From an uncultured Candidatus Binatia bacterium (GTDB taxonomy: Bacteria; Desulfobacterota; Binatia; UBA9968; JAJDTQ01): DNA of 57,712 bases. The stretch covers positions 1 through 57,712 of the forward strand of contig CBDCAF010000020.1 in the NCBI GenBank assembly GCA_965213675.1. Direction: 5' to 3'. Below the pieces are notes generated by a model. It made no database searches, was not told the origin of the DNA, and saw only the letters and a program-made list of their open reading frames with translations. The translations under genes were made by a program, and so were the position numbers. Positions 10,010 to 52,823 of the stretch are shown piece by piece (within the stretch, counting starts at the first letter, position 1; the number at the start of each line of letters is the position of its first letter).

Positions 10010-10013
10010 GCTG

Positions 10014-33492: not shown

Positions 33493-33668
33493 GCAGCGCT
33501 TCTCCTTGTGGCGGGTGAATGTCGCCGGCGGGCAACGGCCGCTCCCGCGCCCGCGCCCGCGCCGCTCCGCCACCGGAAAGCCGGGCTCGGCTCCGGACGG
33601 AGCAGGGCACTGATGTGTGGCAAGGGTGGAATGCCGGCCGGCCCAAAAGAGCCGTTCGGCCAACGTGC

Positions 33669-35423
33669 TCAGGTGGCGGCTTTGGCGGGATCGCCCAGAA
33701 CGACCCGGACGTCGGGCCGGCGGATGGAGACCTCCACCTTGCGGCCGTTGGGAACGAGGTGGAGGATCTCCCGGCGGACGGTCTCGGCGATGGAGAGTTC
33801 GAGCGCGGAGTCCTCGCTGCAAAGGAGCCTGGTGGCGATGTGGAGCGCGTCCTCGTCGAACCGCTGGGCCTGCGTGGACCAACTGTCAGCGTCTGCGTCG
33901 TCCGAGGCGATGAAGTAGCCCCGGCGCAAGATCTCCGCGAGTTGGTGTGGTTCCAGGGCGCTGTCCCTTGTCACGAGCGGCAACGCGTCGCCGATCTAGC
34001 TCCAGGGCTCGCCAGCGAAGGCGAGATCGGCAGGAAGATGAAGAGTCGGGCTGGAGCCGCCAGCGGTCCTGACCAATAGCGCCACGCGGATCGCCGCGGG
34101 ACGCGGAGGTAAGGGGGTCACTTCAGTCTCCTTGTGACCGGGCATGGGGAAGTCCCGGAGCGGCCACGCCTTGCCATGAGAGTCGGTGACCTCGGTGTCG
34201 ATGCCCGTGACGCGGTCGAGGCGGTTATACCACTCGTAGCCGTCGAGGCGCCTGTCGGCTTCGAAGAGCCTCCCGGCCAAGCCCGCGTGTTCTGCCGCGC
34301 GCCACAGCGCCTGCGCCTCGGGGGGCTCGGGATCGCAGTCCATCACCAACGCGTCGGGGCCGGCGGGCGCGGGCTTCGGAGGCTCCCGCCAGTCGTCGAT
34401 GTCCGCGATGGCGGGACGCCAGGGACGGAGAACCTGGGGAGGCGGCGCGAGGTCGATCCCGGCGCCGCGCGCCCGCGTCCAGTCGGCGAAAGCGGGACGG
34501 GGCTCGGAGTCGGCGGCCATGGCGCGGTAGATCGCCAGACGGGCGGCCTGGCGCATCTCGGCCAGAAAGGCATTCTCCACCGCTTCGCGGCGGGCGGGCA
34601 GCACGAGTTCGAGTCCGGGGCAGTCCACGACGTCGGCGCGGACGGACCAGTTGGAGCCGTGAACGGTCTCGACCGTGGGCAGGCGCGCGGGCACGGTCAG
34701 CCCGAAGAAATTGAGGTCGGGCTCCATGTAGCTCCGCCTGCGGTCCCGGTAGACGCCGAAGGCGAGTCCGTTCCATGCCTCGGCATGGACGGCGCCGTCG
34801 AGGAAGGCCTTGCGTTCAATCGCCTCGCCTTCGAACGTGACCGGTAGCGGAAAATGGCGCGCCGCACTGGCGAGGGCGGCGCGGATCATGTCGGCGGACT
34901 CGGCAGCCTCGAACCGTATGGCCGTGCCGGATGGATAGGGCGCGCTGTCGTCGCGCCGGACCAGGGCGTCGCTTTGGCCCGTGAAGTGCTCTGGTGCGAG
35001 GTCCACCGACCAGCCGTATTCGACTTCGCCGCCGGGCGTGCGTGGGCGCGAGCATATCCGGCAGCCGCGGTGTGCGAGGCTCAGGATCCCCATGCCGGCG
35101 GCGTCCTCTCGGGCCACAAGGTCGTCGGACCAGCCGTTCTCGCCGAAGCTCAACAGGACGGCAGGGTCCTCGATGCCGGCCCCGTCGTCGGTGACGGTCA
35201 CCGCAAGGCGTGGCTCGGACGGCTCGGGCGCACGGCCGGCGCCCTTGGTGAGTGCCTCCACGGTGACGTGGATGCGGGTCGCGCCGGCTCGACGCGAGTT
35301 CTGGAGGGTTTCGAGGAAGATTTCGATCGGGCGGGACGCCCAGAACTTCGTGACGCGCTTGAGCGCGCTTTGGTGGACCCGGGCGCGGATGGTCGCAACG
35401 GGCGGATTGGCGGTGCGGGTCAT
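33669..35423 (-). pseudogene. GHKL (HATPase_c) domain protein split by one in-frame TAG
   Basis: ETLQNSRRAGA, DDGAGI, AGMG, GT; frame continues past TAG at 33996-33998 into 33669..33983. Confidence 0.75.
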
Positions 35424-35446
35424 GCGGTGCCTCCATTTTGGATGAG

Positions 35447-35493
35447 AAAACGCAAGCGCCCCGCCCCGCACACCGCGGGGCGGGGCGCTTGCG
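35447..35493 (-). terminator. Long GC hairpin/terminator after parB
   Basis: Perfect 19-bp stem, 5-nt loop, then TTTT on the minus strand. Confidence 0.75.
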
Positions 35494-35506
35494 GGCAGAA
35501 GACGGT

Positions 35507-37807
35507 TCAGACGCGGCGGAGGAACTCGGGGATGTCGAGCCCTTGGCCGTTGTCATGCCCGTTGGCGGCACGGACCACGGCATCGCCGTTGACGGCAATG
35601 GTCGCGCCGCTGGGTTCGGCCGACTCTGGAGGCTCGATGCTTTCGATTACGGGCCTCGGCGGATCGGCGGGCGCGGCTGCGCTCTCCGGTTCCACCTGCT
35701 CGGTTGTGTCGGCGTCTTCCGGTTCCGGGGCTGCAGAAACCCATGACTCGTCTGCCGTCGTGTCCGCACCGGCATCCTCGACGCCGGCGCGGCCCGCGTC
35801 GAACGCCTTGAAGCCGGGCGGCGTCCAGGCCAGCGCCGCCGCGTGGGCGTCGGCGGTGACGCCGACCGGGGGCGTGCCGGCAGCGAACGCTTCTTCCATC
35901 GCCTTGACGAGCGCGGTCTTCTTGCTCTTGGCCCTTGCCGAGGCCCATGCCGGTCCCAGGGTCTCCCTGGCGATGTCGAGGATGCGGCCCTTGTTGATGC
36001 GCGACCACAGCATGTCCGCTGTCGGGCGCACTTGGCCCGCGAAGTCGATGCCGAGCCGCGCGACGGTGGCCTCCAGCTCCGGACGCGCCCCAGGCTCGAA
36101 GGCCAGCTGGCCCTTCACCGTGCGCGCCACCGCAGCGGCGAACGATGCTTGCTTGTCGGCCTGCGGCAACGCCCGGAGCGCCGCGAAGGATTCCCGGTCG
36201 TCCTCGATGGTCAACCAGTCCAGCGGCAGGCCGGAGCGGTCGGCCAGCATGGCCTCGCCCGGGCTCCAGGCGCCGAAGTCCTCGTCGTTCATGCGCGTCG
36301 TGGGACGGTCGGCGGTCTCCTTGATGGCGATGTCGAGGGCGTGGGCCTGGGAGCCGTGGGTGAACACGGAGCGGCCGAGCTGGAAGAGCATGAGATCGAA
36401 GGCCGCCTCGAAGTCCTCGCCCAGATGCGCCTTGACCAGGGCCGTGCGGATCGATCGGAGATCGTCCGAGAGCCCGATCCCCATTCCTGCCTCCTTGCGC
36501 GCTTCCGCCCCGGGATCCGGAGCCGGGGCCATGGGACCGGAGATGGACGGTCCCCGGAGCCGGTCGGACCCCGTGACGTCGCCGCCGCCATCGGCCTCAC
36601 CGCCGTTGCTCTCGCCGGCATCGGCTGGCTTGGGCATGTCCCCGGGACGGATCAGTCCCTTGATCACCTGGAGTTTGCCGTCCCGGCCGATGGTAGCGAT
36701 GCAGCCCGCGATCGCGTAGTCCTCCGCCTGGTAGGCGGCCCGGGCCTCGATCGCCGCGTGGATCTCGTCCGTGCGGGTCTCGATGGCGCAGGCCTCCTCG
36801 CCGAGTTGCTCGGTCCACTCGTCCTCGTCGAGATCGCAGAGTTCGTCCTCGCGGGAGCGCAGACGCTCCAGTTCCGATGCCTCCTCGTCCGTGGGCGTGG
36901 CGGGCTCCGGCTGGATGCGCCCGTAGCGCGCAAGCTCGCTCCAGTCGACCTCCGGCACGGCCGTTGCCCAGCGCCAGCGGGTCACCAGGTCCTTCGCGGT
37001 GTCGTCCAGCTTCTGCATGGCGAGATTGTTCAGCAGCACCGGGTCCACCAGCCAGACGCCGCTCTCGTCCTCGTCGGAGAAGAGGTCCCGCAACACCGCT
37101 CCGCCCGCGGCCTCGTAGGTGCCGACCCCCACGAAGTGCGCCACGGCGGAGTTGGCCGGGACCCGGTCCTGGGTGAGGAGCCGCTTTACCTGCCAGGCGG
37201 TGGGGCGGTAGCCCTGGTTGGCCACCTGCTCGAAGACCGCCATCTGGCGGCGGTGGTCGGTGGTGACGGCGAAGCCCTTGAGCGTCTCCAGGTCGATCGT
37301 GCCGTCCCGGTAGGCGTGGAGCAGTTCGGGCGCGGCGTTGCCGAGCCGAAGACGCTGTTCGACCAGGCGCTCGGAGATGCCGAAGCGGGCCGCGATGGAG
37401 GACACGGTTGAGCCGGACTCGGCCAGGTCCCTGAACGCCGCCACCTGATCGGCCGGATGCATGGCGATGCGTATGACGTTCTCGGCGAGCGACAGTTCGC
37501 TTGACGAGGCGTTGCTGTCGACCACCATGCAAGGCACCGGGTGGGCGGCATCGAGCACGCCGTCCGCGGCGAGAGCCTTGAGCGCCGCGAGGCGGCGACC
37601 GCCCGCGACCACGGCGTAGCCGCCGTCCGGGCCTTCGCTTCGGACGACGAGGTTCTCCAGGAGTCCGTGGGACGCGATGGATGCCTCGAGCTCGGCCTCG
37701 GCCGCCGCGTCGGACGGTGTCTTGCGCACGTTCTCGGGCGCGACGGAGAGTTGGTCGAGGGCGATCGGGCGGATCGCCGAATCGTGGATGGGAGCGGTAT
37801 GGTTCAT
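35507..37807 (-). CDS. Large ParB N-terminal domain protein (ICE/plasmid type)
   Basis: ENVRK, GLLENLVV, AGGRRL, SLAENVIRIAMHPADQ; RBS AAGGAGG; start trimmed. Confidence 0.9.
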   Translation of the reverse strand: MNHTAPIHDSAIRPIALDQLSVAPENVRKTPSDAAAEAELEASIASHGLLENLVVRSEGPDGGYAVVAGGRRLAALKALAADGVLDAAHPVPCMVVDSNASSSELSLAENVIRIAMHPADQVAAFRDLAESGSTVSSIAARFGISERLVEQRLRLGNAAPELLHAYRDGTIDLETLKGFAVTTDHRRQMAVFEQVANQGYRPTAWQVKRLLTQDRVPANSAVAHFVGVGTYEAAGGAVLRDLFSDEDESGVWLVDPVLLNNLAMQKLDDTAKDLVTRWRWATAVPEVDWSELARYGRIQPEPATPTDEEASELERLRSREDELCDLDEDEWTEQLGEEACAIETRTDEIHAAIEARAAYQAEDYAIAGCIATIGRDGKLQVIKGLIRPGDMPKPADAGESNGGEADGGGDVTGSDRLRGPSISGPMAPAPDPGAEARKEAGMGIGLSDDLRSIRTALVKAHLGEDFEAAFDLMLFQLGRSVFTHGSQAHALDIAIKETADRPTTRMNDEDFGAWSPGEAMLADRSGLPLDWLTIEDDRESFAALRALPQADKQASFAAAVARTVKGQLAFEPGARPELEATVARLGIDFAGQVRPTADMLWSRINKGRILDIARETLGPAWASARAKSKKTALVKAMEEAFAAGTPPVGVTADAHAAALAWTPPGFKAFDAGRAGVEDAGADTTADESWVSAAPEPEDADTTEQVEPESAAAPADPPRPVIESIEPPESAEPSGATIAVNGDAVVRAANGHDNGQGLDIPEFLRRV

Positions 37808-37941
37808 GTGTCCTCCTTGCATGGGATGATGGACGGGGCTCTCTCCAGCCGTGTTCCGCCGCCGGACCCTGAGCCAGACTCCGCCTCCGGGCGGTGTCCG
37901 TAGTAGACGGGGTGGCGGCGCGGACCGTGAATAGTCCTGAC

Positions 37942-38796
37942 TCATGGCCCGGCGCTCTCTTCGGCAAGGAGCCGGTCGGAGAGGCTGGGCGTTCCGGCGG
38001 CGGAATCGGCCGGAATGCCGGTGAGATCCGGAAGCGCGACGCCGGACGGCGACAACGTGTGGCCGATGCGTTTCTCGAGCGCCGCGTAGCGGCGGTAGAG
38101 CCCGGGGCGAAGCTCGGCGGCGCGGCGCATGGCGGAACTGGATGAGAAAATACAAAAGGAGCAAGAGCACCTCGACATCCCCCGCGCATACACCCAGTGC
38201 GGCGACTGGCCGGCGTCGCGGATGATCCGGAACACGTCGTCGGTGGTCAGATCGAAGATCGGTAGCCAGTCGAACCATTCCCGGCCGGCACGGGAGTTGC
38301 GGTCGCTGCGCGTCCAGGGGATGCGTTTGGACCGCGCATTGCTCTCGTCGCGTCGGATTCCGATGGCGCTGACGATGCGCCCGCCGAAGCGGGGGTGGGC
38401 CTTCAGGTAGCGGCGAAGTTCGCGTTCGATGGGCGAACGCTTCCAAGTGGCCGTGCACCACCGCAACTGGGGTCCGGAGAACATGCCCCTTTCCTCGATG
38501 CCATCGAGAAGCGACTTGCCGGACGCCACGCGCGCGAGTATCAGCGGAACGCCGGCGGGCATGGTGTTCTCGATGTGCTCGACCGTGCCGGGCCACTCGA
38601 CCTCTCTGAGCGGAGCATGGACCACCACGAGCTGGTCGCGGGGCACGGTCCGGGCGAGGAGGATGGTCATGGATTGGCTATCCTTGCCCCCTGACGAATT
38701 GACAGCAACGAGCGCGCCCCGGCGGATCATGTCGCGGCACTCGGGCGGGATGTGGATGTCAGCGGGTCTGCGGCCGCGTGGCGGGCGCCCGCTCAT
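37942..38796 (-). CDS. PAPS-reductase family (PP-loop) protein
   Basis: SSGGKDS, RWCT, GIRRDESNAR, LPI, RCSCSFC; start trimmed to ATG overlapping the upstream stop. Confidence 0.88.
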   Translation of the reverse strand: MSGRPPRGRRPADIHIPPECRDMIRRGALVAVNSSGGKDSQSMTILLARTVPRDQLVVVHAPLREVEWPGTVEHIENTMPAGVPLILARVASGKSLLDGIEERGMFSGPQLRWCTATWKRSPIERELRRYLKAHPRFGGRIVSAIGIRRDESNARSKRIPWTRSDRNSRAGREWFDWLPIFDLTTDDVFRIIRDAGQSPHWVYARGMSRCSCSFCIFSSSSAMRRAAELRPGLYRRYAALEKRIGHTLSPSGVALPDLTGIPADSAAGTPSLSDRLLAEESAGP

Positions 38797-39035
38797 GCCC
38801 GGCGCCCTTCGTGGTCCGTCAAAATCATCGCCGGGGTCGGGCAGACGAAGAGGGGGCTGATGAGATATTCCGGATCGCCGCCGTCCTGAGCGGGGAGACT
38901 GACGGTGACCGCGGCAATGGCCGCGGTTGCTTCGCCGTCGACGAAGCACGAGACGAGGCAAAAGTTGTCGAACCGGCCCCTGGCCAGGGCCTCGAACGCG
39001 CGGCGGTGTTCCTCTGTAATGTTGGTGTGGGGCAT
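38793..39035 (-). CDS. Small hypothetical protein
   Basis: MPHTNITEEHRRAFEAL...ISPLFV; coupled to the PAPS-reductase gene. Confidence 0.65.
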   Translation of the reverse strand: MPHTNITEEHRRAFEALARGRFDNFCLVSCFVDGEATAAIAAVTVSLPAQDGGDPEYLISPLFVCPTPAMILTDHEGRRA

Positions 39036-39123
39036 GGCGGCGACTTCCGTGGGAGTGGCGTGGGGGAGCCCGTCCTCGGGCCCCGGGACTCGCCCGGCCC
39101 GCGCCGCTCGCCACCTCCCGGCG
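39001..39123 (+). repeat. Diverged direct repeat, copy 1
   Basis: Aligns by eye with 46234..46359. Confidence 0.75.
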
Positions 39124-39677
39124 GCGGGCGGAAGCACCAGGTGGATGTATGGCTGGGGACCGGACGGCCACGCGGATCCAGGCCATGACCGCCCGATACT
39201 GCTGATAAGTCATTCACAAGCCGCAGTGGATGCGGGGACGGACTCGTCGGCGGTCGCCTCGACTTTGTCACGCGAGAGCTTGCGAAAGGGAACACATCGA
39301 GAACTCGGCCTCGCTGTCGGCGTTTCCGTGGTCTTCGCGCGTGGAATTTCGATGACGGTGTGGTCCGGGGGGTGAAGCGGTAGCGCGTGAAGTGATCCGA
39401 GTGGGAATACGAAGATCTCGCGCAGGGCCACCAACGGCTGACTCCCTGCGAGAAGCCACCGTGCGCCCGTCCAACACGTCTCACTCGCAACTCGACCGGA
39501 CCAGAAGGACGTGTTAAACAGGACCCTGGCGGCGAGATCCTGTCAACGGAATACGCCTTAGCTCGGCCACTTTCCTGTACATCAATAGAGGACTACCTTA
39601 GGTATCTACTGGGACTTGGAGACACTCCATCGCTTATTTTGTCCCTTGTTTGTCCGGGAAAAGAGCTGACGGAACAT

Positions 39678-42600
39678 ATGGCTGGCGAAAAGAGGCAGAT
39701 CTTCACTGCACAACGGGTGGACCCGCGAGAGCCTGAACTATCGCAGAGTACATCGGCACGGTTCTCTCCTGGAGATGTAGTGAGACTCCGTGCAGATCCC
39801 GAGCAGTCCGGTGTCGTTACACACGTCCATCCCGTGGGGCAGGAAACGCGTTATCAGGTCTTCATCGACGGAAATGTTGGCTCCTTCTACGAAAGCCAGC
39901 TTGAGCTTGCAAGAGCAACGTCGGAGACGGATTCGGTCGTCCCGCTTGCGGAATTCCATGCGTGTCTGACCGCGTTACAGCTCCTCCATCCGAGTGTGTC
40001 GAAACTCTATTCACTCCACGCAGCGCGAATTGACTGCATTCCTTACCAGTTCCGTCCCGTTCTGAAGTTTATCCAAACCGACCGGCCCCGGTTGCTGATT
40101 GCCGACAGCGTTGGCGTAGGGAAGACGATTGAAGCCGGTCTGATTCTGCGGGAGTTGCAAGCGCGTCGTGACATGCGCCGTGTCCTAATAATCTGTCCGC
40201 GCCCGCTCATGACGGAGCAGAAGTGGCGCCTTGAGATGAAGCGGTTCGACGAGAGCTTCGTGCATCTCGACGGCCCGAAGTTGCGATACTGCATTTCGGA
40301 AACGGATCTCGACGGCGAATGGCCCCAGCAGTACGAGAAGGCAATTTTACCGTTCTCACTTCTCACGGAGGAGTTCCTGCATGGGCGAGGTACGGCGAAG
40401 GGGCTTCTCGACTTGGACCCGCCGCCGCAGTTCGATTTGGTCATCGTCGATGAGGCACACCACATCCGTAACGCAGAGACTCAGCGCCATCAAGCGGTCC
40501 GCTTTTTTTGCGATAACGCCGAAGCCGTTCTTTTCCTTACGGCTACCCCCATACAACTGGGTGAACATGACCTGTACGTGCTTCTTAACGCCCTTCGCCC
40601 TGATGTTGTCATCGATCATGCCGGTTACACGGCAATGGTGGAACCTAATGCGCACATCAATGAAGCTGCACTCATTGCCCGAGCCGGAGAGCCGGGTTGG
40701 GTTGGCAAGTCACAGGATGCATTAGGCCGCGCTGCCGAGACTCCGTGGGGGAAGACCGTCCTACGAGAGAACCCGCGTTTTCAGAACCTGTGCGACGCGC
40801 TAGGTGACTTCGGCGACGAGCGGTCTGGACGAGTTCAGGCTATACGCGAGATCGAACAGCTGCACACGTTGTCCGGCCTAATGAACCGAACGCTGCGCCG
40901 CGATATCGGCGAGTTCACTCAGCGCAAGCCCGAAACGGTGACCATAGACTTCACACCAGCGCAACGCGAACTACATGACGCGGTGCTGGCCGCTCAGGCC
41001 TCGATCTATGCGGCCATCCACGGTGACCGGTCGGTGAACTTCCTGTTGACCACGATACGCCGACAGGCCGCCAGCTGTATCCACGGTCTGGCTCCGCTTC
41101 TCCGTGACATCCTTACCCGGAGAATCGGAGGGCTGGAATGGGACGACTTGGCGGACGCTGAGGGGGCACCAGTAGGTGCTGACGATGCCGTTTCGAAGAT
41201 TAAAGCCCTAGTGAACGATGCACTCGCCTTGGCTGAGAAACTACCGCCCGATCCGGTCGGGGACCCTAAGTTCCAGGCTCTACGAAGAGTGTTAGAACAG
41301 AAGAAAGCGCTCACCAACAACAAGGTGATGTTGTTCAGCACCTTCCGCCACACCCTAGCCTATCTCTATGAGGCCCTCCGAGAAGCTGGATGCCGGGTAG
41401 GGCTCATTCATGGAGGCGTCGAGGATGATGAACGTATTGCATTCCGCGCGCGCTTCGAAATGGATCAAATGGCCCCCGAGGCTCTCGATGTCCTTCTTTT
41501 CTCCGAAGTGGGATGCGAGGGTCTTGACTACCAGTTCTGCGACTGCATTGTGAACTACGATCTTCCCTGGAACCCTATGCGCATCGACCAACGCATCGGG
41601 CGCATCGACCGGTGGGGTCAGGCGAGTGCAGCCGTTGCTATCTACAACTTGATAACGCCTGGCACAATTGACGCTGAAATCTACGATCGCTGTCTTCTCC
41701 GAATCGGCGTCTTTGAACGTGCCTTGGGAGCAAACGAGGTAATCCTCGGTGAAGTCACGCGGGAACTCACGAGCGTCGGTGAGAACTTAACGCTTACCGA
41801 GGAAGAACGGCAAGCAAAGCTCGACCAGCTAGCGGACAACAGCATCCGCCTAGTCACCGAACAGCGGGAACTAGAGAACCGTCAGACGGAGCTGTTCGGT
41901 TTACGGCCACCCGCGGATCAGTTCCAGCAAGATGTGGATGACGCTACAAGTTACTGGTTGACCCCAGACTCTATCGACCGGCTCGTCACGCACTATCTGA
42001 AATCCGTCACGGGAAAAGAAGGGACCCCGGTCCTCGGCAAAGGGCCGAAGAAGACCCTGCGCGTTTCCAGATCGGGGCGGGATGCGCTGCTGGCTGACTT
42101 CGGCAAGCTAACAAGCCGCACCGCCACCGTCGCGAGGGAGTGGGAAATGTGGCTGAAGGGAACGGAGCCCAATCTCTCGGTGACTTACGATTCGGCCTGC
42201 GCGAAGGGTGATAGAAGCGTGACCCTGATTACTCCGGTCCATCCGCTAGCGCTTCAGGCCGCCCACGCGTTGGGAGCCGTGGGCCGGGGACGCCCATTGA
42301 CCGCCATCGAGGTTTCAGCCCCCAAGGTTGTTCCGGGTGATTATCCATTTGCTGTTTACCAGTGGCAGTTTCACGGCATTCGCAACGACGTCGACTTTCA
42401 ACCGGTGACTACGCAGACCGAATTGACGGCCCAGTTTACGCAGCTCTTGCCGGGCGCCAAGGAATGCACGCTACCTGTTGGGGGTCTATCTGCAAATGAC
42501 CGGAACAGTATCGAGGAGGAGCACTACCGGTTGTGGTCCGATGCCCGCGCCGAGCATGTTGAAGAAACCAATCGACTAGCCGATTTCCGGCGCGGGAGCC

Positions 42601-42809
42601 TTGAGACAAGCCACAAAGCCCGCATGGCGATCCTCGAATCGCAGCTTGCCCAAGGGGCGAACGACCGCATCCGAATCATGAAGGCGGCTCAACAGACGAA
42701 CGCCCGAGCCGACTACCAACGGCGATCCAAGGAAATAGACGATGCTACCAGCAAGGCCGACATCACGGCTAAGCCGGTAGCTTGGGGAATCATCCGCGTG
42801 AATACGTAA
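39678..42809 (+). CDS. SNF2-family helicase/translocase (RapA/DrmD-like architecture)
   Basis: IADSVGVGKT, DEAHH, TATP, EGLDYQ, YDLPWNP, QRIGRIDR; SH3-like N-terminus; start uncertain (39639 or 39678). Confidence 0.92.
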   Translation: MAGEKRQIFTAQRVDPREPELSQSTSARFSPGDVVRLRADPEQSGVVTHVHPVGQETRYQVFIDGNVGSFYESQLELARATSETDSVVPLAEFHACLTALQLLHPSVSKLYSLHAARIDCIPYQFRPVLKFIQTDRPRLLIADSVGVGKTIEAGLILRELQARRDMRRVLIICPRPLMTEQKWRLEMKRFDESFVHLDGPKLRYCISETDLDGEWPQQYEKAILPFSLLTEEFLHGRGTAKGLLDLDPPPQFDLVIVDEAHHIRNAETQRHQAVRFFCDNAEAVLFLTATPIQLGEHDLYVLLNALRPDVVIDHAGYTAMVEPNAHINEAALIARAGEPGWVGKSQDALGRAAETPWGKTVLRENPRFQNLCDALGDFGDERSGRVQAIREIEQLHTLSGLMNRTLRRDIGEFTQRKPETVTIDFTPAQRELHDAVLAAQASIYAAIHGDRSVNFLLTTIRRQAASCIHGLAPLLRDILTRRIGGLEWDDLADAEGAPVGADDAVSKIKALVNDALALAEKLPPDPVGDPKFQALRRVLEQKKALTNNKVMLFSTFRHTLAYLYEALREAGCRVGLIHGGVEDDERIAFRARFEMDQMAPEALDVLLFSEVGCEGLDYQFCDCIVNYDLPWNPMRIDQRIGRIDRWGQASAAVAIYNLITPGTIDAEIYDRCLLRIGVFERALGANEVILGEVTRELTSVGENLTLTEEERQAKLDQLADNSIRLVTEQRELENRQTELFGLRPPADQFQQDVDDATSYWLTPDSIDRLVTHYLKSVTGKEGTPVLGKGPKKTLRVSRSGRDALLADFGKLTSRTATVAREWEMWLKGTEPNLSVTYDSACAKGDRSVTLITPVHPLALQAAHALGAVGRGRPLTAIEVSAPKVVPGDYPFAVYQWQFHGIRNDVDFQPVTTQTELTAQFTQLLPGAKECTLPVGGLSANDRNSIEEEHYRLWSDARAEHVEETNRLADFRRGSLETSHKARMAILESQLAQGANDRIRIMKAAQQTNARADYQRRSKEIDDATSKADITAKPVAWGIIRVNT

Positions 42810-42812
42810 ACC

Positions 42813-45800
42813 ATGTCAAGCGACTACGAAGCGATTACTCGTGACAATATCCGTCGGCGCGGGGAGGAGTTCGACGACATCGGCAATCTTCTTGCCGAAA
42901 AGCTCTACGGGGACCGCGCACACTTTATCTATGAGCTGCTACAGAACACGGAGGACGCCCTTGCTTTGCGTCGCCAGAGGGAGCCAGACGTAGACTTCTG
43001 CGGCGAGGTTCTCTTCCGCCTATGCATCGACCACCTGGAAGTGAGCCATTACGGGAAGCCTTTCGATGAAGACGACGTGGGAGGTGTTTGCGATGTTCTT
43101 CGCGGTACCAAGAATGAACGTCTGGACCAAATCGGGACGTTCGGCATTGGTTTCAAATCCGTCTATGCTTTCACGCGTTCGCCTGACATTCATTCTGGCG
43201 ACGAGCATTTCGCCATCACGCATTTCATCCGCCCTCACACCGTGAAACCCCGTCTCCTTGAAGACGCCTCACAAACCTTGTTTTATTTCCCTTTCGACCA
43301 CCCTGAATTTGATGCATCCGCTGCTTTTGATCTTATCCAGAGCAAACTCAAGTCTCTCGGTCCGAGGGCGCTTCTCTTCCTAAATCACGTTGATGGACTT
43401 CGCTGGATTGTTGAAGGAGGTGGACGCGGATTCTACATGCGGGACCACCAGACGAGCGAGGACGGCGGTACCCTCGTCCAGATCATGGGAGAGGGTACCA
43501 ACCAGGACGACACTGAGGAGGAGTGGCTAGTTGCGCATCGAGATGTGAATCACCCTGCTCGTGGCGAACAGCTCCCGGTCAAAGTGGCGTACCGTATAGA
43601 GCGGGACGAAGTTGGTGGATCCATCGTCGGTCTTCGCCCGTCGCTACTGACTGCATTCTTCCCAACCGCGAAAGAGACGGGCCTCGGTTTTCTGATACAC
43701 GGGCCCTTCGCCTCCACACCTGCCCGTGACAACATCGAAACTGACTCGGCTTGGAACACCCTGCTCTTACGTGAGCTTGCAACTCTGGTTTCTGACAGTC
43801 TGGACGTCTGCAAACAGCGTGGCTTTCTGACGCCGCAATTCCTAACGGTGCTACCGACCGACCCCGAGAGCTTCCCTGAAGGCTCGCCATTTCGACCAAT
43901 CTACGAGGCTGTTCTCGAAGCTTTCCAGACTCAAAGCGTAATACCGCGCGTCGGTGGTGGGCACATAAGAGCGGACCAGGCGGTTTTGGGCCGTTCGCAA
44001 GAACTGCGGAATCTGCTGTCTCCGGCCCTTCTGACGGAGGTCTTCGGCAATTCCGCTGAGACCAGGTATTGGGTTGACGCCGCCGTCACGGAGAACCGTC
44101 TCCCCGAACTCTGGCAATACTTGCGGGACGAATGCCATGTTCCGGTCCTCGACGGTGACGCGTTTGCACGGCAGATCACGGGTCACTTCCTGGAAGAGCA
44201 GGATGAGAAATGGATGGCCCGCTTCTATGCGTTTCTGAACGGGCAAGAGGCCCTTTGGAGGGTGTCTCGCTACGGGCCCGAAGGATCGCTCCGCAAGAAG
44301 GCGATTATTCGGTGCCAGGACGGACGACAGCGTCCGCCGTTTGATAGCGCCGGGAATCCTCTTGTCTTTCTCCCGATAGAGTCAAAGACCAACTGTGATG
44401 TCGTGCACAGGTCTATCTATGCCATGGAAGAGGCAGCGGAATTTATGCGTCGGCTCGGGTTGGTCGAACCCGACATCTGCACCCGTGTTCTCGATGAAAT
44501 CATCCCGCTTTACCGGGATGATGTAGAGGACGCAGCTCATAAAGAACATGTTGGAGTGATCGCCGATGCCATGCTCGCAGAAAATTCTCCGCGCTATGCC
44601 GCGATGTTGTCGGCGCTGAAGGCGACTACCTGGGCTCTGGCCACCAACGCAAAAACTGGGGAAGAAGACTACAAAGCACCTACTGAACTGTTTTTCCCAT
44701 CTTCTGAGTTGCGGGTTTTCTTTGAAGGTAACGAGGAAGTGGCATTCCTGGCTGAACAAGAAGAGGGAGTCAACTGGGAGAAACTCGGTGTAGGCAGCGA
44801 GCCAGTCATTCGCTTTCGGGGGTCCGCTAGGGAGCGCAATCGTTGGGTGACCCTGCTTTCCTGGCACGGTTGGCACGAGCGCGGTTACGACGGCTTTGAC
44901 CCGGAAACAACTGTGGCCGGCCTCGACCATGCTCTTACCAACATCACGTCTCCACGGGCCGCATACATTTGGAACGAGCTGTTGCCTCCCCTCATACGAT
45001 TCCTCCACGGCCGTTACCAGAAGGCAACACACCGAAACTACGATAACGCAACCACCTGTGAAGGCGATTCCGTCGTCTGCAAGATGCTGAAGAGCCATGC
45101 CTGGATTCCTGTACGGAGTGGCGGGTTCAAGAAGCCTTCCGAGTGTACACTTGCCGATCTGGCCGGTGAATTGAGACGGAATGAAGACCTTGCGGAAGTT
45201 CTTGGCGTCCGTCCCGATCCCGTGAAAGTAGCCGAGGAGACGCTCGAGAGTGAACAGAACCTTGTTGCCGCAGGATTCTCTCCTGAGGTTGCCGCCCTCC
45301 TCGTCAACAACAAGGAGGTCCTGACGCCAGAACTCATCAAGACATTGTTGGGCAGTCGCGGTACGGGATCCTCAAGTCAACCCCCATTTCCCGAGCGGCC
45401 GGTTCCTAATAGAGAGCGCCGAGTTGGTCGGGTCGGTGAACGCGTGAAAAAGGCAGACCCCAAGACTTACGACAAACGAAAGCGCTCTGTTCGTACTTCC
45501 AAACCGGAAGTCCCGGCGGACGCGTGGCTTCGCGAGATGTACACGAATCCAGAGGGCACCACCGTTTGCCAAATGTGCTGTCAGGCGATGCCCTTCAAGC
45601 TTCCCCGAACGGGCGAGTATTACTTTGAAGCCGTCCAGATAGCGGACAACTTCCCTATAGAGGAACACTGTATGTACTTGGCGTTGTGCCCGCTGTGCGC
45701 CGCGAAGTACAAGGTATTGGTGAAGGGGGACGCAGATTATCTCAAGGAGTTCATCTGGGCGATAGAGGAGGCGAACGAGAAAGTCGTTTCAACAGAAATG

Positions 45801-45881
45801 GACGGAACGCCCTGTACAATACGTTTCGTTGAGTCCCACCTTCTTGACGTGAAGACCGCGCTGTCAGAATGCTTATCCTGA
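42813..45881 (+). CDS. Sacsin-like GHKL ATPase with C-terminal CxxC...CxxC (HNH-like) domain
   Basis: YELLQNTEDA, GKPF, GTFGIGFKSVY, IHGPF; C-terminal CQMC...YFEAV...LCPLC. Confidence 0.83.
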   Translation: MSSDYEAITRDNIRRRGEEFDDIGNLLAEKLYGDRAHFIYELLQNTEDALALRRQREPDVDFCGEVLFRLCIDHLEVSHYGKPFDEDDVGGVCDVLRGTKNERLDQIGTFGIGFKSVYAFTRSPDIHSGDEHFAITHFIRPHTVKPRLLEDASQTLFYFPFDHPEFDASAAFDLIQSKLKSLGPRALLFLNHVDGLRWIVEGGGRGFYMRDHQTSEDGGTLVQIMGEGTNQDDTEEEWLVAHRDVNHPARGEQLPVKVAYRIERDEVGGSIVGLRPSLLTAFFPTAKETGLGFLIHGPFASTPARDNIETDSAWNTLLLRELATLVSDSLDVCKQRGFLTPQFLTVLPTDPESFPEGSPFRPIYEAVLEAFQTQSVIPRVGGGHIRADQAVLGRSQELRNLLSPALLTEVFGNSAETRYWVDAAVTENRLPELWQYLRDECHVPVLDGDAFARQITGHFLEEQDEKWMARFYAFLNGQEALWRVSRYGPEGSLRKKAIIRCQDGRQRPPFDSAGNPLVFLPIESKTNCDVVHRSIYAMEEAAEFMRRLGLVEPDICTRVLDEIIPLYRDDVEDAAHKEHVGVIADAMLAENSPRYAAMLSALKATTWALATNAKTGEEDYKAPTELFFPSSELRVFFEGNEEVAFLAEQEEGVNWEKLGVGSEPVIRFRGSARERNRWVTLLSWHGWHERGYDGFDPETTVAGLDHALTNITSPRAAYIWNELLPPLIRFLHGRYQKATHRNYDNATTCEGDSVVCKMLKSHAWIPVRSGGFKKPSECTLADLAGELRRNEDLAEVLGVRPDPVKVAEETLESEQNLVAAGFSPEVAALLVNNKEVLTPELIKTLLGSRGTGSSSQPPFPERPVPNRERRVGRVGERVKKADPKTYDKRKRSVRTSKPEVPADAWLREMYTNPEGTTVCQMCCQAMPFKLPRTGEYYFEAVQIADNFPIEEHCMYLALCPLCAAKYKVLVKGDADYLKEFIWAIEEANEKVVSTEMDGTPCTIRFVESHLLDVKTALSECLS

Positions 45882-46233
45882 CGACTAGGAGGTTGCCCTT
45901 GTAGCCAGGAATCGCTGAGGGGCACGCAAATGGCGTCCTTTCCCCTCTCTAAGATCCGCTTACTCTGACAAACCCCCTATCCTCGGTCGACAAGCTTCGC
46001 TGCACGCCAAGGTGCCCAACCACACATGGGAAACCTTTGAGCACCCACAAGACGGCGAGCGAGAAACCTCGAACCTACCTCAGACAGGTAGTCGTACGAT
46101 GATCGAAAGAGGTCGGATCTAACGCACCGGCGAGGCACGTCCAGAAGATCTGATCTCTGGAGAACCTGGACGGCACGGTGGGGCGGCGGACCGTGCCACG
46201 ACACTCGGAGGAATGAAAAGGTCGGCGGGTCTG

Positions 46234-46359
46234 CGGCAGCGTTCCCCGGTGACATGGGTGTCGGGCATGGCGCGGACCTCCTTTGCAGTCGGGTGGGGGC
46301 GCCCGGGCTCGGGGCTCTCCGGGTTTCGCCCGGCCCACGCCGCCCGCCACCTCCCGGCG
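46234..46359 (+). repeat. Diverged direct repeat, copy 2 (with aborted MPDTHVT gene start)
   Basis: Aligns with 39001..39123. Confidence 0.75.
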
Positions 46360-46425
46360 TTGGACAGCGCGTTGTGGGGGTCGCAGCGACCGACCGCCAC
46401 CGGCGGGACAGTCGCCGTCAGCGGA

Positions 46426-46803
46426 TCAGCGGAGGTGCTCGTTGTCCCGGAGCAGCTCTTCCTCCATTTCGCGAAGCCAGGCGTAGCGGCCTGTCCGCAT
46501 CGCCCATTCCTCCATTTCGCCGTCGTCTTCCGGCAGCTCGTAACCTGAGAAGGTGGACCAATCGGAGTGACGGAACCCCCGCCAGAGGGCGCCCGCGAGG
46601 CTTGCGGCAACGGTCCAGGCAATCGCCGCCATCCAGAGCGGGCCGACGTGCTCCGCGCCCGCGCCGAGAACGAGCACCGCTGCGTTGTAGACAGCGGCGA
46701 GGGCAAGCCCGCCGAGTACCAGGGCGCGGGCGTGCCAAGTGATCCGGCGCGCGGAGCGGCCCGGTCCGTTGTCCTGAGTTGTGTATGTTCCCGTCATGTT
46801 CAT
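46426..46803 (-). CDS. Small membrane protein (2 TM)
   Basis: Two hydrophobic segments and an acidic tail. Confidence 0.65.
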   Translation of the reverse strand: MNMTGTYTTQDNGPGRSARRITWHARALVLGGLALAAVYNAAVLVLGAGAEHVGPLWMAAIAWTVAASLAGALWRGFRHSDWSTFSGYELPEDDGEMEEWAMRTGRYAWLREMEEELLRDNEHLR

Positions 46804-46929
46804 GGCTCCACTATGTCGGTGGGAGCGGGGCGGGTCCGGGCTCCCGCCGGCGCTGCGCTGATTGAGTTGACAGAGGAGGACAAAGGGTCTTCTTCGGTGT
46901 ACCGACGAAGACGCCTCTTGCCGGAGGTA

Positions 46930-48267
46930 TCAGGAGGTTGCGATGTCGATGCGCTCGCCCCAGGGCTCGCAACTGCGCTCCGGCGGGGCCGTATTCCAGT
47001 TGACCCAGACCACGTCGAACCCGGGCTGGGCCTCTGGGTAACTGGAGCACTCCATGTCCGTGAAGTAGAGGCACAGGGTTGGCTGTATCCCCTGCTCATC
47101 GAGCCACTCGAAGCCCGGGCGGAAGTCGGTGCCGCCCCGGCCCTTGAGCACGATCTCGCCGGGGAGGTCGTCGGCCGTGTACTCGGCCGCGTCCTGCAGT
47201 GCGGCGTCGACCTGGAGCACGATGACCCTCTCGGGGCGGATCTCGTCAACGACCTCGCGCAACTCCGCCCAGAACTCGGCCAGGGTCTGGGCGGGAACGG
47301 AACCCGAGGTGTCGATGATGACCGTGATCGTGTCGATGCCCTCGGAGCGGATCGAGGGTAGGTAGAGGCCCGAGTCGATGAAGCGCCTGTTGGGTGCGCT
47401 CCAGCTGTAGTCGCGTCTGGCGGCGTCGGTCATGTAGCGGCGCAGCAGCGTCCGCCAGTCGAGCGTGCTGGCGTGGGCGTTTCGGACAGTCTCCTCGACG
47501 CCTCCCGGCGCCTTGCCCTCGGCCCTGGCGATGCTGAGGGCCTGGTGCATGGCCTCGTCCCAGGCCTGCTCCTCGGCGGCGGTGTCCACCAGTGTCTCAG
47601 AGGGATCGGAGCCTTCTCCTGCACGGGAGGCGGCGTCCATGACCTCGCCGGTGCCGGAAGGATCGTGGCTCGGCGGCCCACTGGATGCACCGTCCTTGTC
47701 GTGGGGGCTTTTCTGCCCATCTTGGCCGTCACCGGCGGGGTCCGACGGATCGCCGAGCTCCTCGCTGTCGCCGCCGGAAGGCGCATGGCCGCCCGCCCCG
47801 GCGCCCCCGCCGCCGACATCCTGGGACGCGTTCCCTTCGTCACCCGAGTCGCCCTCCCCGGGATCCGGCAGGCGGTCATATGCCTGCTCCACGCTCAGGT
47901 CCTCCCAGGCCTCGGCATCGGGCGGGAGGGTGAAAACCGCATCGCGGAGCAATGCGTGGGTGACGAGCTGCGAGGCCTGCTGCCACCGTTCCGGGTCCCG
48001 GTCTCCCCGGCGGGTGTGGTGCTTGAGCGCGCACGCCATCACCACCCGCGCCATGGCGGTCTCGATGAGGTGCGCATCGGTTTCAGCTACCCAGCGGGGT
48101 GAGTAGCGGATCTCGTGTCCGTCGCTCGCAAGCGTCGTACGTGTGGGATCGGCCCGGAGCGGGAGCCTCAGCACGAGGCTCCCGAAGAAGGGCTGCTTTT
48201 GCAGGAGCCGGGTCACGCAGTCGCTGACCCGGAGCGCGGACTCGGCGAGTACGTTGGCGGACATCAC
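46930..48267 (-). CDS. DUF2201-type metallopeptidase-like + vWA protein
   Basis: QPFFGSL, ASDG, acidic linker, LDWRTLLR, MIDAS DTSGS, RGGTDF, YFTD. Confidence 0.87.
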   Translation of the reverse strand: MMSANVLAESALRVSDCVTRLLQKQPFFGSLVLRLPLRADPTRTTLASDGHEIRYSPRWVAETDAHLIETAMARVVMACALKHHTRRGDRDPERWQQASQLVTHALLRDAVFTLPPDAEAWEDLSVEQAYDRLPDPGEGDSGDEGNASQDVGGGGAGAGGHAPSGGDSEELGDPSDPAGDGQDGQKSPHDKDGASSGPPSHDPSGTGEVMDAASRAGEGSDPSETLVDTAAEEQAWDEAMHQALSIARAEGKAPGGVEETVRNAHASTLDWRTLLRRYMTDAARRDYSWSAPNRRFIDSGLYLPSIRSEGIDTITVIIDTSGSVPAQTLAEFWAELREVVDEIRPERVIVLQVDAALQDAAEYTADDLPGEIVLKGRGGTDFRPGFEWLDEQGIQPTLCLYFTDMECSSYPEAQPGFDVVWVNWNTAPPERSCEPWGERIDIATS

Positions 48268-49154
48268 GCCACCTCTTGTACCCGCGGCGTGAAGTAGCCG
48301 GCGAACTGCTCCATGAGCGCGTCGGCGTCGCTCTTCACCTTCGCCCGGACAGCGGGGTCGAAGGTCCCGGACGGACGGAGCGAGTCCGGCTCCACGCCGG
48401 CGATCCTGTCCTTCACCTGCTCGCAGAGGCTCGCCAGCCTGTGGTCGCCGAAGATGTTAAGGCGGGGGACCACGTCCACCAGATCCCGGATGTTGGATAT
48501 CATGGTGTCTCGGAACACCAACGGCTTGCCGTTGTCGTTCTCGGTCAGACGCTCCGAGACCCGCTCGACCGCCTCGGCCAGGCGCCGGTAGAGGTCTCCC
48601 ACGGCGTCGTGGAGCTGTTCCTCGATGTGGAGCTCAATCTCGCGCTTCACCCGCTCGGTGTCGTCCGAGGCCAGCCTGGCCATGAAATGGTCCGCGTCGG
48701 GCACGGGCGTGATGCGGTAGCGGATGGAGAACCTGTCCCGGAGATCCTCCTTCGATGGATACTCCTCCATGCGAAAGAGTTTGCCCAGGTCGATCCGGGC
48801 CTGCTCGACGTAGTCGTCGTACTCCTCGATGAAGCGGGTGCGCTGACGCACCAGGCGCTCCCGGAGTCCGTCCATGACTTGGGTGTAGTACTCGTAGTTG
48901 GCGACGGTGAGGAGCCGCGAGCCCTTGTCGTCCCACGGCAGCGAGTTCGAGTAGTGCCGGGTCCTGGCCTCGTTCATGGTGGCGTTGAGCGCGGCCAGGG
49001 CCGCCTTGGGCAGAAGTCGTTTGTTGTACCGCCCCGCGCTTGTGCTGGCGTCATGGTGGGCGGCGACGTGGTCGCTCGCCTCGCGGTCGTAGAGCCGGCT
49101 GGACCAGGCGCTTATGCGCAGCCCGACCAGCATGGCATCTCTGTTGAGGTCCAT
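48264..49154 (-). CDS. DUF3150-like helical protein
   Basis: LRISAWS, YNKRLL, SLPWDDKGSRLL, EYPS, FRDT; located between MoxR and vWA genes. Confidence 0.6.
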   Translation of the reverse strand: MDLNRDAMLVGLRISAWSSRLYDREASDHVAAHHDASTSAGRYNKRLLPKAALAALNATMNEARTRHYSNSLPWDDKGSRLLTVANYEYYTQVMDGLRERLVRQRTRFIEEYDDYVEQARIDLGKLFRMEEYPSKEDLRDRFSIRYRITPVPDADHFMARLASDDTERVKREIELHIEEQLHDAVGDLYRRLAEAVERVSERLTENDNGKPLVFRDTMISNIRDLVDVVPRLNIFGDHRLASLCEQVKDRIAGVEPDSLRPSGTFDPAVRAKVKSDADALMEQFAGYFTPRVQEVA

Positions 49155-49174
49155 GATGGGTTCCTCCTTCAGGG

Positions 49175-49306
49175 CTACCTGAGGGTCCACAGGGGGACGT
49201 TGATTGCAGCGGCGAGTTTACGCGCGGCCTCGCGGCTGCGCGCCCTCACGGCGTACTCGCACGAGTTGGCACAGCCCGCGGGGTAGTGAGTTGTCATCCA
49301 GTGCAT
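49175..49306 (-). CDS. 43-aa small ORF (absent from the ORF track)
   Basis: RBS GGGAGGA; MHWMTTHYPAGCANSCEYAVRARSREAARKLAAAINVPLWTLR fills the intergenic gap. Confidence 0.5.
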   Translation of the reverse strand: MHWMTTHYPAGCANSCEYAVRARSREAARKLAAAINVPLWTLR

Positions 49307-49318
49307 GAGCTTCCTCCC

Positions 49319-50344
49319 TCACCGGGTCCTTGCCGCGGCCCAGCGGATGAAGGCGGGCGAGCGCTGGAGAGCCGGGTCCCGGCGCACGCACGCGCCCACC
49401 AGCGACTCTCCCACCTCCCTCCTGAGCCGTTCCGCGAACGTGACGATGGCGTCCATGGTGACATCGCTTGCGAGCCGGTAGAGCGAGCCGCAGAGCGCCA
49501 TCAGCGCGCTCGCGTTCTCCGGGATGTCCGCGTTCCCGGGGTCGGCGAGGACCGCCCGCGGGTGGGGCAACTCCCGCCACACCTTCAGGAACGCCGAGAA
49601 CTCCACCGCCGCCGCCTCGCCCACCGCGCCCCGGAAGAGCGCCCGCTCGACTGCCGGATCGAGGCCGTTCCGGAGCTTGACGATGTTTGAGGTGAACTCC
49701 CATGTCCTGGGGCACGGGTAGGCGCGTTCCCTGGACTGCGGGTCGAACTGGTGCAGGAGGTCCGGTTTGTATGTGACGAAATACAGAACTTCGGGAGCGA
49801 TGCCGTTGGCGGCGCCCCAGGCGAGCCAGTCCTCCGCATCGACACGGATATCGAGGTGAACGAATCGCGAGGCCAGGGGCGTGGGCATGCGGTGGACGAC
49901 GCCGCGGTCGGTCTCCCGGTTGCCGCAGGCTATGAGCGACGCTCCCTCGGGAAGCTCGTACTCGCCGACCTTTCGATCGAGCACCAGCTGGTACAAGGCC
50001 GCCTGGACCATCGGGACAGCGGAGGGCAGCTCTTCGAGGTTGATGAGCCAGCGGCCGGTATCGTCGGACGGGGGCAGGAAAGCGGGCGGCGCCCAGCGGG
50101 TGCGGTCATCGGTGTCGCGCCAGGGGATGCCGCGCAGGTCCACGGGGTCGAGCAGCAGAGCCCGGACATCCACGTACTGGCGGTTCGTGTCCACGGCCAC
50201 CTGCTGGGCGATTTGGCTCTTGGCCGCGCCGGGCGGCCCGAAGACGATGGTCGGCTGGCGGGCCTCGACCAGCAGGGCGAGGACCGAAGCCAGTTCGCTG
50301 GGGCGAAGCGTGTAGTCGGCGGAGATCTTCTCGGGAAGAGGCAT
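49319..50344 (-). CDS. MoxR-like AAA+ ATPase
   Basis: GPPGAAKS, DPVDLRGIP, LEEL, ACGN, PLASRF, PRTWE; start trimmed. Confidence 0.88.
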   Translation of the reverse strand: MPLPEKISADYTLRPSELASVLALLVEARQPTIVFGPPGAAKSQIAQQVAVDTNRQYVDVRALLLDPVDLRGIPWRDTDDRTRWAPPAFLPPSDDTGRWLINLEELPSAVPMVQAALYQLVLDRKVGEYELPEGASLIACGNRETDRGVVHRMPTPLASRFVHLDIRVDAEDWLAWGAANGIAPEVLYFVTYKPDLLHQFDPQSRERAYPCPRTWEFTSNIVKLRNGLDPAVERALFRGAVGEAAAVEFSAFLKVWRELPHPRAVLADPGNADIPENASALMALCGSLYRLASDVTMDAIVTFAERLRREVGESLVGACVRRDPALQRSPAFIRWAAARTR

Positions 50345-50651
50345 CGGCGTCCTCCGTGTTGAAGGGAATTCGGCGCGGAGGACGCTCTCCAGACCGTCCG
50401 TCCGCGCCCTCGCCGGAGGCCATCTCCACCTCTTTGGGACGCCGGGACGCACGGCAGGGATCGCAGGGGGGTTGCGCGGCAAGCCATGGGGCGATGCTCC
50501 TTCGGCATCCCGATTGCCTGCCCCTCGTTGAATCGGATAGGCTGGAGTTCTCCCGGAGAACTTGCGGGCGGGACCAATGATTGCGTGGGACGCCGGACGC
50601 GCTCTGCCGCGCCGACGTTACGGCGTGGGCAATTGTACAGGGGAGGACCAA

Positions 50652-51038: not shown

Positions 51039-51233
51039 TTCCGAACAACAACCGGACGGGACCGGCGGAGCCGGGTCTCGACTGACCCATTCCCAGCGGC
51101 TGTTTCAACGGTGCGCATCCGCGCATCGCAACTGCCCGAACCTAGCCCGTGGGGAGCGAGTCGCTTTTCAACAGCCGGTCGGCTACCTTGAGAGTTTTCC
51201 ATAAAGCCCGCAAGCTACGGAAGGAAAAATGAG

Positions 51234-52795: not shown

Positions 52796-52823
52796 GACAT
52801 GTTGCGTCGCGCCGCGCGTTAAC

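Follow-up and report, generated by a model that had tools for sequence, protein, structure and literature searches.

What two large genes are doing in the middle of a stretch whose backbone is read in the opposite direction is the question raised by the window analysed here, that is, the whole 57,712-base contig CBDCAF010000020.1 of an uncultured Candidatus Binatia bacterium, taken from a genome bin that is 97.7% complete with 8% contamination. We infer that the cassette formed by the two genes (approximately positions 39211–45881) serves as a mobile module against invaders and represents a variant within the Tiamat/DISARM kind, and we place the probability of this reading at roughly 55%. The defence assignment draws on the obligate pairing of the genes, their invariant catalytic motifs, their relation to the TmtA and DrmD families, the defence context of related loci and the mobility of the unit. 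Gene 1 occupies an open reading frame (ORF) on the plus strand at 39639..42809, with 1056 amino acids counted from a TTG codon, and its residue numbers are given here from that codon; the ATG at 39678 (residue 14) is the likelier start, because family conservation begins only near residue 41, and the likely coding span is thus 39678..42809. Gene 2 (42813..45881, plus strand, 1022 amino acids) follows after 3 nt, and both ORFs are intact. An earlier note, made from the letters of this DNA alone, had described two large intact genes 3 nt apart that run against the backbone, are lower in guanine–cytosine (GC) content than their flanks and lack a methylase, and on all these points it was borne out. 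The flanking ORFs with a Pfam match (28323–39213 and 46930–55304) all lie on the minus strand. The two genes lie in a block of 56% GC, the fraction being 0.55–0.59 over 39500–45999, compared to 0.67–0.73 at 30000–39499 and 0.66–0.70 at 46000–50499. The cassette contains the two genes only, and the closest DNA methylases are found at 4601–5884 and 8378–10009, more than 29 kb away.

Gene 1, by profile matches and a structural model, carries a Swi2/Snf2 core together with C-terminal domains of the RapA type. It matches Pfam SNF2-rel_dom (5.8e-17) and Helicase_C (3.5e-18), and the motifs GVGKT (Walker A), DEAHH and QRIGRIDRWGQ (motif VI) are conserved across 49 aligned gene-1 sequences. Among the PADLOC profiles, DrmD PDLC02623 is matched near full-length (6.2e-117, residues 42–918), with weaker matches to profiles labelled BrxHI and BrxHII (4e-52, 3e-44) as well as to DrmA, HmaA, DpdE and ZacC. 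The score against NCBIfam DISARM_DrmD, 315.6 bits, is about half of the 610 cut-off; that against the NCBIfam RapA equivalog, 176.4 bits, is below the cut-off of 576, hence gene 1 is not a RapA orthologue. Among solved proteins, E. coli RapA comes closest (phmmer, 6e-35), and matches of the ATPase lobe also include DDM1 and HELLS. A small domain at the N-terminus (residues ~41–95, 39759..39923), with which family conservation starts, probably folds as a beta-barrel; its sole Pfam match is a weak one to TOBE_2 (2.9e-4), and this was also the only match at E<0.01 when five pieces of both proteins were searched against Pfam, with no further domain found. The C-terminal region (residues 690–1056, 41706..42806) gave no Pfam match at E≤1. 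Its AF2 model, built on a 46-sequence alignment with a mean predicted local distance difference test score (pLDDT) of 84.5, found four Foldseek matches in the PDB at E≤0.001, all of them RapA (best 6bog, 2.6e-8, probability 1.00), consistent with RapA-like domains that end in a long helical hairpin. The 50 best PDB matches of this model include no nuclease, and for gene 1 as a whole no nuclease domain was detected by Pfam (whole protein and pieces) or by Foldseek with the C-terminal model.

The product of gene 2 is best described, on profile evidence, as a Tiamat-like protein in which a predicted GHKL ATPase of the sacsin/Hsp90 type is followed by a TmtA-like core and a degenerate HNH C-terminus. 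It matches Pfam SACS (1.5e-11), NCBIfam P_loop_sacsin (1.3e-19; 70.4 bits, over the cut-off of 50) and nine PADLOC profiles for TmtA, the Tiamat protein; the best of these (PDLC03972, 2.9e-51) covers residues 24–629, and the alignment to another spans residues 147–760. The Bergerat-fold ATP-binding core is assigned to residues 32–133 (42906..43211, plus strand), in which E41, N45, D48 and the GxxGxG box G108–G113 are invariant in 35 sequences. Compared with solved structures, the family profile matches sacsin (5v47, 5.3e-14) and, over residues 19–134, Hsp90/TRAP1. Pfam DUF3684 gave no match at E≤0.1 for the whole protein or at E≤5 for the piece, and gene 2 has no Pfam match to NOV_C or a PD-(D/E)xK nuclease. 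The protein search returned 3201 homologues, most of about 1020 amino acids with full coverage.

The C-terminal module of gene 2 (residues 860–1022, 45390..45878, plus strand) is, by alignment and modelling, an HNH fold of the McrA type that keeps its Cys4 zinc site (C919, C922, C959, C962) and has lost the canonical histidines. The earlier note had already suspected an HNH domain with the histidine replaced from the motifs YFEAVQI and LCPLCA, and the suspicion proves correct: a 40-sequence profile of residues 640–1022 finds E. coli McrA (6ghc) through its HNH domain at E=1.4e-7. In the HMMER alignment, EVHHV of McrA stands opposite EAVEV of the family (EAVQI in the window), and CPNCH opposite CPLCA. 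By the HNH motif, the histidine at the end of McrA strand 1 is the catalytic one and the His/Asn in the helix binds metal. The AF2 model of the module (pLDDT 87.7) agrees: VIA-align against 48,161 chains ranked McrA at the top (Z 6.5, root-mean-square deviation 3.5, 94 amino acids) and TagI second (Z 6.4), with other HNH domains following at Z 3.5–4, and the best Foldseek match was again McrA, weakly (E 0.018, probability 0.97), with PacI among the weak fold matches. Across 44 aligned sequences, C919, C922 and C959 are present in all and C962 in 41. Position 941 is V in 36, K in four and H in one; position 942 is E in 27, Q in 11 and Y in six; position 963 is A in 32, S in seven and in no case His. 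The canonical histidines are therefore replaced in the window protein and, with a single exception at one position, in every aligned member. Other polar residues are strongly kept, H1009 and Q920 in 44/44, E939 in 43/44 and D1012 in 40/44, and H1009 and D1012 sit in a C-terminal extension past the core beta-beta-alpha unit. Short proteins carrying the HNH-like module were also seen (173 matches); most lie on short contigs and are thus probably fragments, while a few are on long ones.

Their relatives show that the two genes form a self-contained unit and are inherited together. A scan of one genome per species yielded at least 468 encoding stretches, from which we retained 77 loci (numbered with the prefix L): 57 full-length loci, in which the match reaches the C-terminus of gene 2, and 20 partial-match loci. 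A survey of pair conservation had been proposed in the earlier note, with rare co-occurrence as the outcome that would speak against a self-contained unit. A gene-1 homologue stands directly upstream of gene 2 on the same strand in 54 of the 57 full-length loci, with a median gap of 17 nt. Two of the three exceptions have no upstream DNA on their contig, and in the third (L046, 28% identity) an SNF2-like gene stands on the downstream side. Among the partial-match loci, an SNF2 gene accompanies eight of the 20, six of these being truncated, for the most part where the contig stops or close to it; the remaining 12, half of them from Actinomycetota, have no SNF2 gene and a different C-terminus. 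Record titles place the related loci in more than 15 phyla, with almost all members from uncultured organisms, and clustering of the sequences at 80% identity gives 36 groups. With a profile made from the C-terminal half of gene 2, 1095 cluster representatives (50% identity) were found at E≤1e-30 among 1.84 billion proteins, and in the full-length matches listed (about 1000–1080 amino acids) the aligned part is at the C-terminal end or close to it. Over 780 pairs from 40 sequences, identity in one protein rises and falls with identity in the other (Spearman 0.80), a descriptive figure given that related sequences are not independent. When 4052 ORFs within ±8 kb were compared all against all, no third gene proved to be generally conserved. 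There are two partial exceptions, a MazF/PemK-like gene downstream of the pair in six loci and an unannotated gene of about 210 amino acids between its members in nine. The inserted ORF (~205–238 amino acids, without Pfam or PADLOC match) is present in L006 (7340–7957), L007, L010–L013, L034, L057 and L058. Neither this optional middle gene nor DrmA, DrmB or the PDC-S68 helicase found beside some related loci gave a tblastn match in the window. A tandem Tiamat-like paralogue stands beside the pair in L005 (11575–14760, TmtA 2.7e-50) and L066 (~4100–7100).

The cassette also occurs a second time in the same bin, on a 3.97-Mb contig (C1), where the gene-2 protein is 93% identical. A 6660-bp segment of that contig is 96.8% identical to window positions 39211–45865, with a sharp left edge at 39211 and a right edge 16 nt before the stop codon of gene 2. 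The C1 copy has an unannotated ORF on one side and an IS3-type (rve) transposase on the other, with glnS and ferritin genes close by, and shows the same compositional contrast (GC 0.55–0.58 vs 0.62–0.675 in its flanks). Within the genus, an 88%-identical full-length homologue was present in one of 24 other genomes and five more had only distant or partial Tiamat-like matches; of 16 genomes representing the order's other genera, none had a match at E≤1e-20. The sharp-edged second copy in an unrelated context, together with the patchy distribution in the genus, indicates that the cassette moves as a unit of a leader and two genes. The leader or promoter region (39211..39677, plus strand), probably non-coding, travels with both genes and is 97% identical to the C1 copy, from which it differs by a single 1-nt indel, with homology ending abruptly at 39211. 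Plasmid and phage collections yielded only partial matches, in six plasmid records and one phage record, none of them covering ≥80% of gene 2. Scanning 39000–46600 for consensus promoters gave one promoter-like site, not above the chance expectation of 2.2, and the terminator scan of the same interval was uninformative (10 terminator-like sites vs 7.5 expected). We considered whether the leader conceals a third gene, which was ruled out by the 1-nt indel between the copies and the lack of a Pfam match for the overlapping ORF 38825–39490.

The pair frequently has defence genes for neighbours. For 39 loci, 260 flanking ORFs were compared with Pfam and 15 chosen ORFs with PADLOC, leaving out L011 and L012 as near-duplicates of L010 and, for its size, one 1632-amino-acid ORF of L075. 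The earlier note had called for a survey of defence-island enrichment. About 24 of the 39 loci have at least one defence, toxin–antitoxin, restriction–modification or PADLOC candidate gene within 6 kb and four are ambiguous, a pattern consistent with defence islands; these are raw counts with no background rate and do not amount to a statistical enrichment.

How does the pair relate to systems that already have a name? According to a preprint, TmtA of B. cereus Tiamat is a single-gene anti-phage ATPase and DNase, as established by experiment; it hydrolyses ATP, cleaves single-stranded DNA and nicks duplex DNA inefficiently, and neighbouring helicases are proposed to supply it with single-stranded DNA (10.64898/2026.09.30.754977). 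Gene 2 resembles it in the N-terminal sacsin/Hsp90-type GHKL domain with the catalytic Glu and Asn and in the TmtA profile match. It differs in having the degenerate HNH C-terminus in place of a PD-(D/E)xK/NOV_C (DUF3883) nuclease, in giving no Pfam match to DUF3684 and in not being autonomous, as its nearly constant SNF2 partner indicates. The missing nuclease keeps it out of Tiamat in the strict sense. The same preprint, dated 1 October 2026, describes a Tiamat-like "Type IV-A" with a catalytically degenerate HNH-like fold and a "Type IV-B" defined by a helicase-containing neighbourhood, with Swi/Snf among the associated superfamily-2 helicases; it takes no position on the activity of the HNH-like folds and gives no experiment on Type IV (10.64898/2026.09.30.754977). 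As far as that description goes, gene 2, with its predicted Tiamat-like ATPase and core and an HNH-like fold without the catalytic residues, agrees with the definition of Type IV-A. The adjacent SNF2 helicase makes the neighbourhood plausibly one of IV-B, a comparison made with the text description of that type only; IV-B helicases are described as often fused to a nuclease, unlike gene 1, in which none was found.

The likeness to class 1 DISARM lies in the DrmD profile match of gene 1 and in three Nostoc loci (L021, L036, L074), where the pair is followed directly by DrmA (E=0) and DrmB (8.4e-197). Examined for this in L036 alone (4889–18447), a convergent DrmMII-like C5 methylase comes after DrmB, giving the order DrmD-like, Tiamat-like, DrmA, DrmB, DrmMII-like, and a pAgo (Piwi) gene lies upstream. 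The Nostoc operon is a DISARM hybrid that links the Tiamat and DISARM families directly; in class 1 DISARM, the slot held by its Tiamat-like gene is occupied by the methylase. DrmA and DrmB are 97–99% identical among the three loci, which therefore count as one lineage. The cassette of the window, by contrast, is without DrmA, DrmB, DrmC and methylase: tblastn with the Nostoc proteins found no DrmA or DrmB in the window, and none of the 53 scanned ORFs has a DUF1998 or PLD domain. These missing components exclude the cassette from DISARM; for DrmD itself, gene 1 has the PADLOC match and stays under the NCBIfam cut-off.

Other relatives share one part each. The RapA-type Swi2/Snf2 architecture of gene 1 is common to BrxHII of BREX and ArmA of ARMADA, and the RapA-like SNF2 protein ArmA is reported to be required for ARMADA II defence (PMC13463889; 10.1101/2025.09.15.676423). 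In those systems the motor is paired with a PglX-like methylase and a YprA-family helicase-nuclease, whereas here its sole partner is the GHKL protein; the YprA/ARMADA preprint names none of Tiamat, GHKL, HSP90, sacsin, HATPase and MORC. McrA and TagI share the Cys4 zinc site and beta-beta-alpha fold with the gene 2 module, which differs in the replaced catalytic and metal-binding histidines, in lacking a McrA-type N-terminal reader domain and in possessing the conserved extension with its invariant histidine. For want of the catalytic residues, the module does not qualify as an HNH nuclease. Prokaryotic MORC and paraMORC are GHKL ATPases whose genes are linked to a superfamily-2 helicase in settings of defence (10.64898/2026.09.30.754977). 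This coupling is the point of likeness, there alongside nucleases and methylases; gene 2 belongs to the sacsin/Tiamat clade of GHKL proteins, and no methylase or active nuclease stands beside the pair here. From Hma, in which SNF2 is fused to NOV_C and accompanied by a methylase and an ATPase, the pair differs in having neither NOV_C nuclease nor methylase, and the HmaA profile covers only part of gene 1 (3e-44, residues 542–709); a true HmaA adjoins the pair in L013. The earlier note could match the pair to no named system, and it counted any such match against the novelty of its proposal. Since the components do match named families (TmtA at 2.9e-51, DrmD at 6e-117, and the Type IV-A/IV-B descriptions), novelty is weakened at the component level by the note's own rule, and what stands is that no complete named system was matched. 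The pair is best filed, on the strength of its sequence, as a variant of the Tiamat/DISARM kind with a presumptive role in defence: a real, intact and mobile module, widespread in uncultured bacteria and already partly catalogued in the preprint. Among the literature searched, we found no paper testing the combination of SNF2 and Tiamat-like genes.

As an anti-invader module, the pair would probably act as one complex on incoming DNA. Gene 1, given its motifs, would be a RapA/DrmD-type motor that translocates on double-stranded DNA or remodels protein–DNA complexes. Gene 2 presumably dimerises on ATP binding in the manner of Hsp90, MutL and MORC and may, as a sensor or clamp gated by ATP, detect the target or close around it, with the HNH-like module serving as a DNA-binding, DNA-sensing or docking element and not as the cutter. 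Translocation by the motor could then block replication or transcription directly or expose the DNA to a nuclease acting in trans, which might be supplied by the host or, where they are present, by neighbours of the DrmAB or PDC-S68 type. No methylase accompanies the pair, so that discrimination of self from non-self must rest on something besides methylation encoded in the cassette. As for the killing step itself, the pair could interfere without nucleolysis, recruit a nuclease in trans or rely on a non-canonical active site in the HNH-like module. Several observations weigh against the anti-invader reading as it is drawn here. Searches of both proteins turned up no nuclease active site, which leaves the effector step unexplained; the conserved H1009, D1012 and E939 could make the HNH-like module catalytically active after all; the RapA-like architecture would fit a role related to transcription as well; 11 of the 39 surveyed loci, again a raw count with no background rate, have only housekeeping or unannotated neighbours; and the two cassette copies may come from two organisms, given the contamination of the bin.

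The second of these objections leads to a different division of labour within the same defence module, in which the HNH-like domain is the effector, a non-canonical nuclease rebuilt from E939, H1009, D1012 and Q920 to which the SNF2 motor feeds DNA. Near-invariance of these four residues speaks for it, as do PacI, which is among the weak fold matches of the module and, as the preprint notes, cleaves DNA without canonical HNH residues, and the need of B. cereus Tiamat for single-stranded DNA, which a helicase could supply (10.64898/2026.09.30.754977). Both canonical histidine positions are substituted, however (V/E/Q at 941–942, with one His in 44 sequences, and A/S at 963), and H1009 and D1012 lie beyond the core unit, and we regard a rebuilt nuclease as possible but rather unlikely. 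The opposite course, immunity with no cutting at all, would have an ATP-driven GHKL clamp with a dead HNH "reader" and the SNF2 motor silence or compact the invader DNA, or strip the machinery of transcription and replication from it, leaving it uncut; this we consider a doubtful, speculative extension. In eukaryotes, GHKL ATPases of the MORC type partner SNF2 remodellers of the DDM1/HELLS type in transposon silencing, and were the nuclease-free pair real, it would be a prokaryotic counterpart, possibly a forerunner, of such partnerships.

Two further explanations take the pair out of autonomous immunity. It might be a fragment of a DISARM-type system, or an accessory to one, and work only with helicase-nuclease partners of the DrmA/DrmB type encoded elsewhere, as the DrmD match of gene 1 and the Nostoc operons would suggest; in the bin, one ORF (663 amino acids; contig C19, 66876–67175, handled as L080) is the sole DUF1998/MZB match, unlinked to either cassette copy. 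We find this improbable, considering that the Nostoc loci are a single lineage while the remaining loci, in 36 clusters at 80% identity, have an intact pair without DrmAB, that DrmA and DrmB as well as PLD and DUF1998 domains are missing from the window as described, and that the NCBIfam DrmD score is only about half of the cut-off. Or the pair could have no immune function and be an accessory module of transcription or DNA repair, composed of a RapA-like recycler of RNA polymerase and a MutL/Hsp90-like ATPase. The ATPase core (6e-35) and the C-terminal region both have RapA as their nearest relative of solved structure, a GHKL domain joined to a nuclease-like domain is reminiscent of MutL, and the 11 loci with inconspicuous neighbours would be accounted for. 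The patchy occurrence within the genus, the low GC, the duplication of the cassette in unrelated contexts, the frequency of defence and mobile-element neighbours and the homology of gene 2 to anti-phage Tiamat all argue the other way, and an accessory function of this kind seems to us a long shot. Should the anti-invader reading hold and the pair protect, it would show how a nuclease-less Tiamat-type ATPase works with a DISARM/BREX-type motor as its sole partner, and it would bear both on the role of SNF2 proteins of the DrmD/BrxHII/ArmA type in defence and on whether GHKL-based immunity can act without cutting.

The neighbours counted within 6 kb of related loci include DarT with Macro (DarTG) in L002, Schlafen-type genes in L001 and L053, type I restriction–modification in L024, L030, L033 and L044, Mrr in L024 and L060, PIN or MazF in L006, L038 and L058, AAA_21 with DUF4276 (PARIS-like) in L029, pAgo in L036, CfrBI restriction–modification in L048, ZacA with ZacB (Azaca) in L062, HmaA in L013 and a mad8-domain protein in L020. 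In L062, a Mutator-family transposase (3748–4971) lies between the two genes of the pair, and ZacA and ZacB follow directly downstream. Also beside the pair is a superfamily-1 helicase of 1180–1270 amino acids with a full-length match to the PADLOC candidate PDC-S68, downstream of the pair in L025, L033, L040, L043 and L044 and upstream in L035 and L048. Five copies are 92–99.6% identical at the protein level, yet the labels on their records read Pelobacter, Syntrophobacteraceae, Sedimentisphaerales, Desulforapulum and uncultured bacterium, and such near-identity across differently labelled records suggests recent transfer of a larger island.

The contig of the window is itself a defence and mobile-element island, bearing two integrases, a type I restriction–modification system, a pPIWI-associated nuclease domain, DUF3800 and insertion sequences besides the cassette. 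At 2688–5884, a 698-amino-acid HATPase_c_3 (GHKL) protein shares an overlap with the beginning of a C5 cytosine methylase. PADLOC REase_II profiles match the N-terminus of the GHKL protein (1.8e-31), and the methylase has DruM as its best PADLOC match (1.1e-89), closely followed by MTase_II and DrmMII profiles. The two make up another GHKL-based pair of the restriction–modification kind, unrelated to the cassette. A second block of low GC (0.53–0.58) at 50500–56000 encodes a predicted pPIWI-associating nuclease domain (52824–53732, 1.3e-45), DUF3800 (54369–55304) and unannotated ORFs, and it gave no PADLOC match at 1e-12. The earlier note had further seen decay in nearby backbone genes. At least one gene is indeed broken: a strawberry-notch-like helicase (AAA_34 + Helicase_C_4) on the minus strand is distributed over three consecutive ORFs in different frames (28323–29579, 29604–30746, 30055–31611), which match successive stretches of the two profiles. 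It is either a pseudogene or the product of an assembly indel in a GC-rich stretch, the latter being an alternative to decay because the contig belongs to a genome bin. At 35507–39213 (minus strand), a 1029-amino-acid ParB_N ORF and a 423-amino-acid PAPS-reductase-like ORF, with weak matches to BrxP and SspD profiles, overlap by about 650 nt in different frames, which could reflect a frameshifted fusion or a miscalled start.

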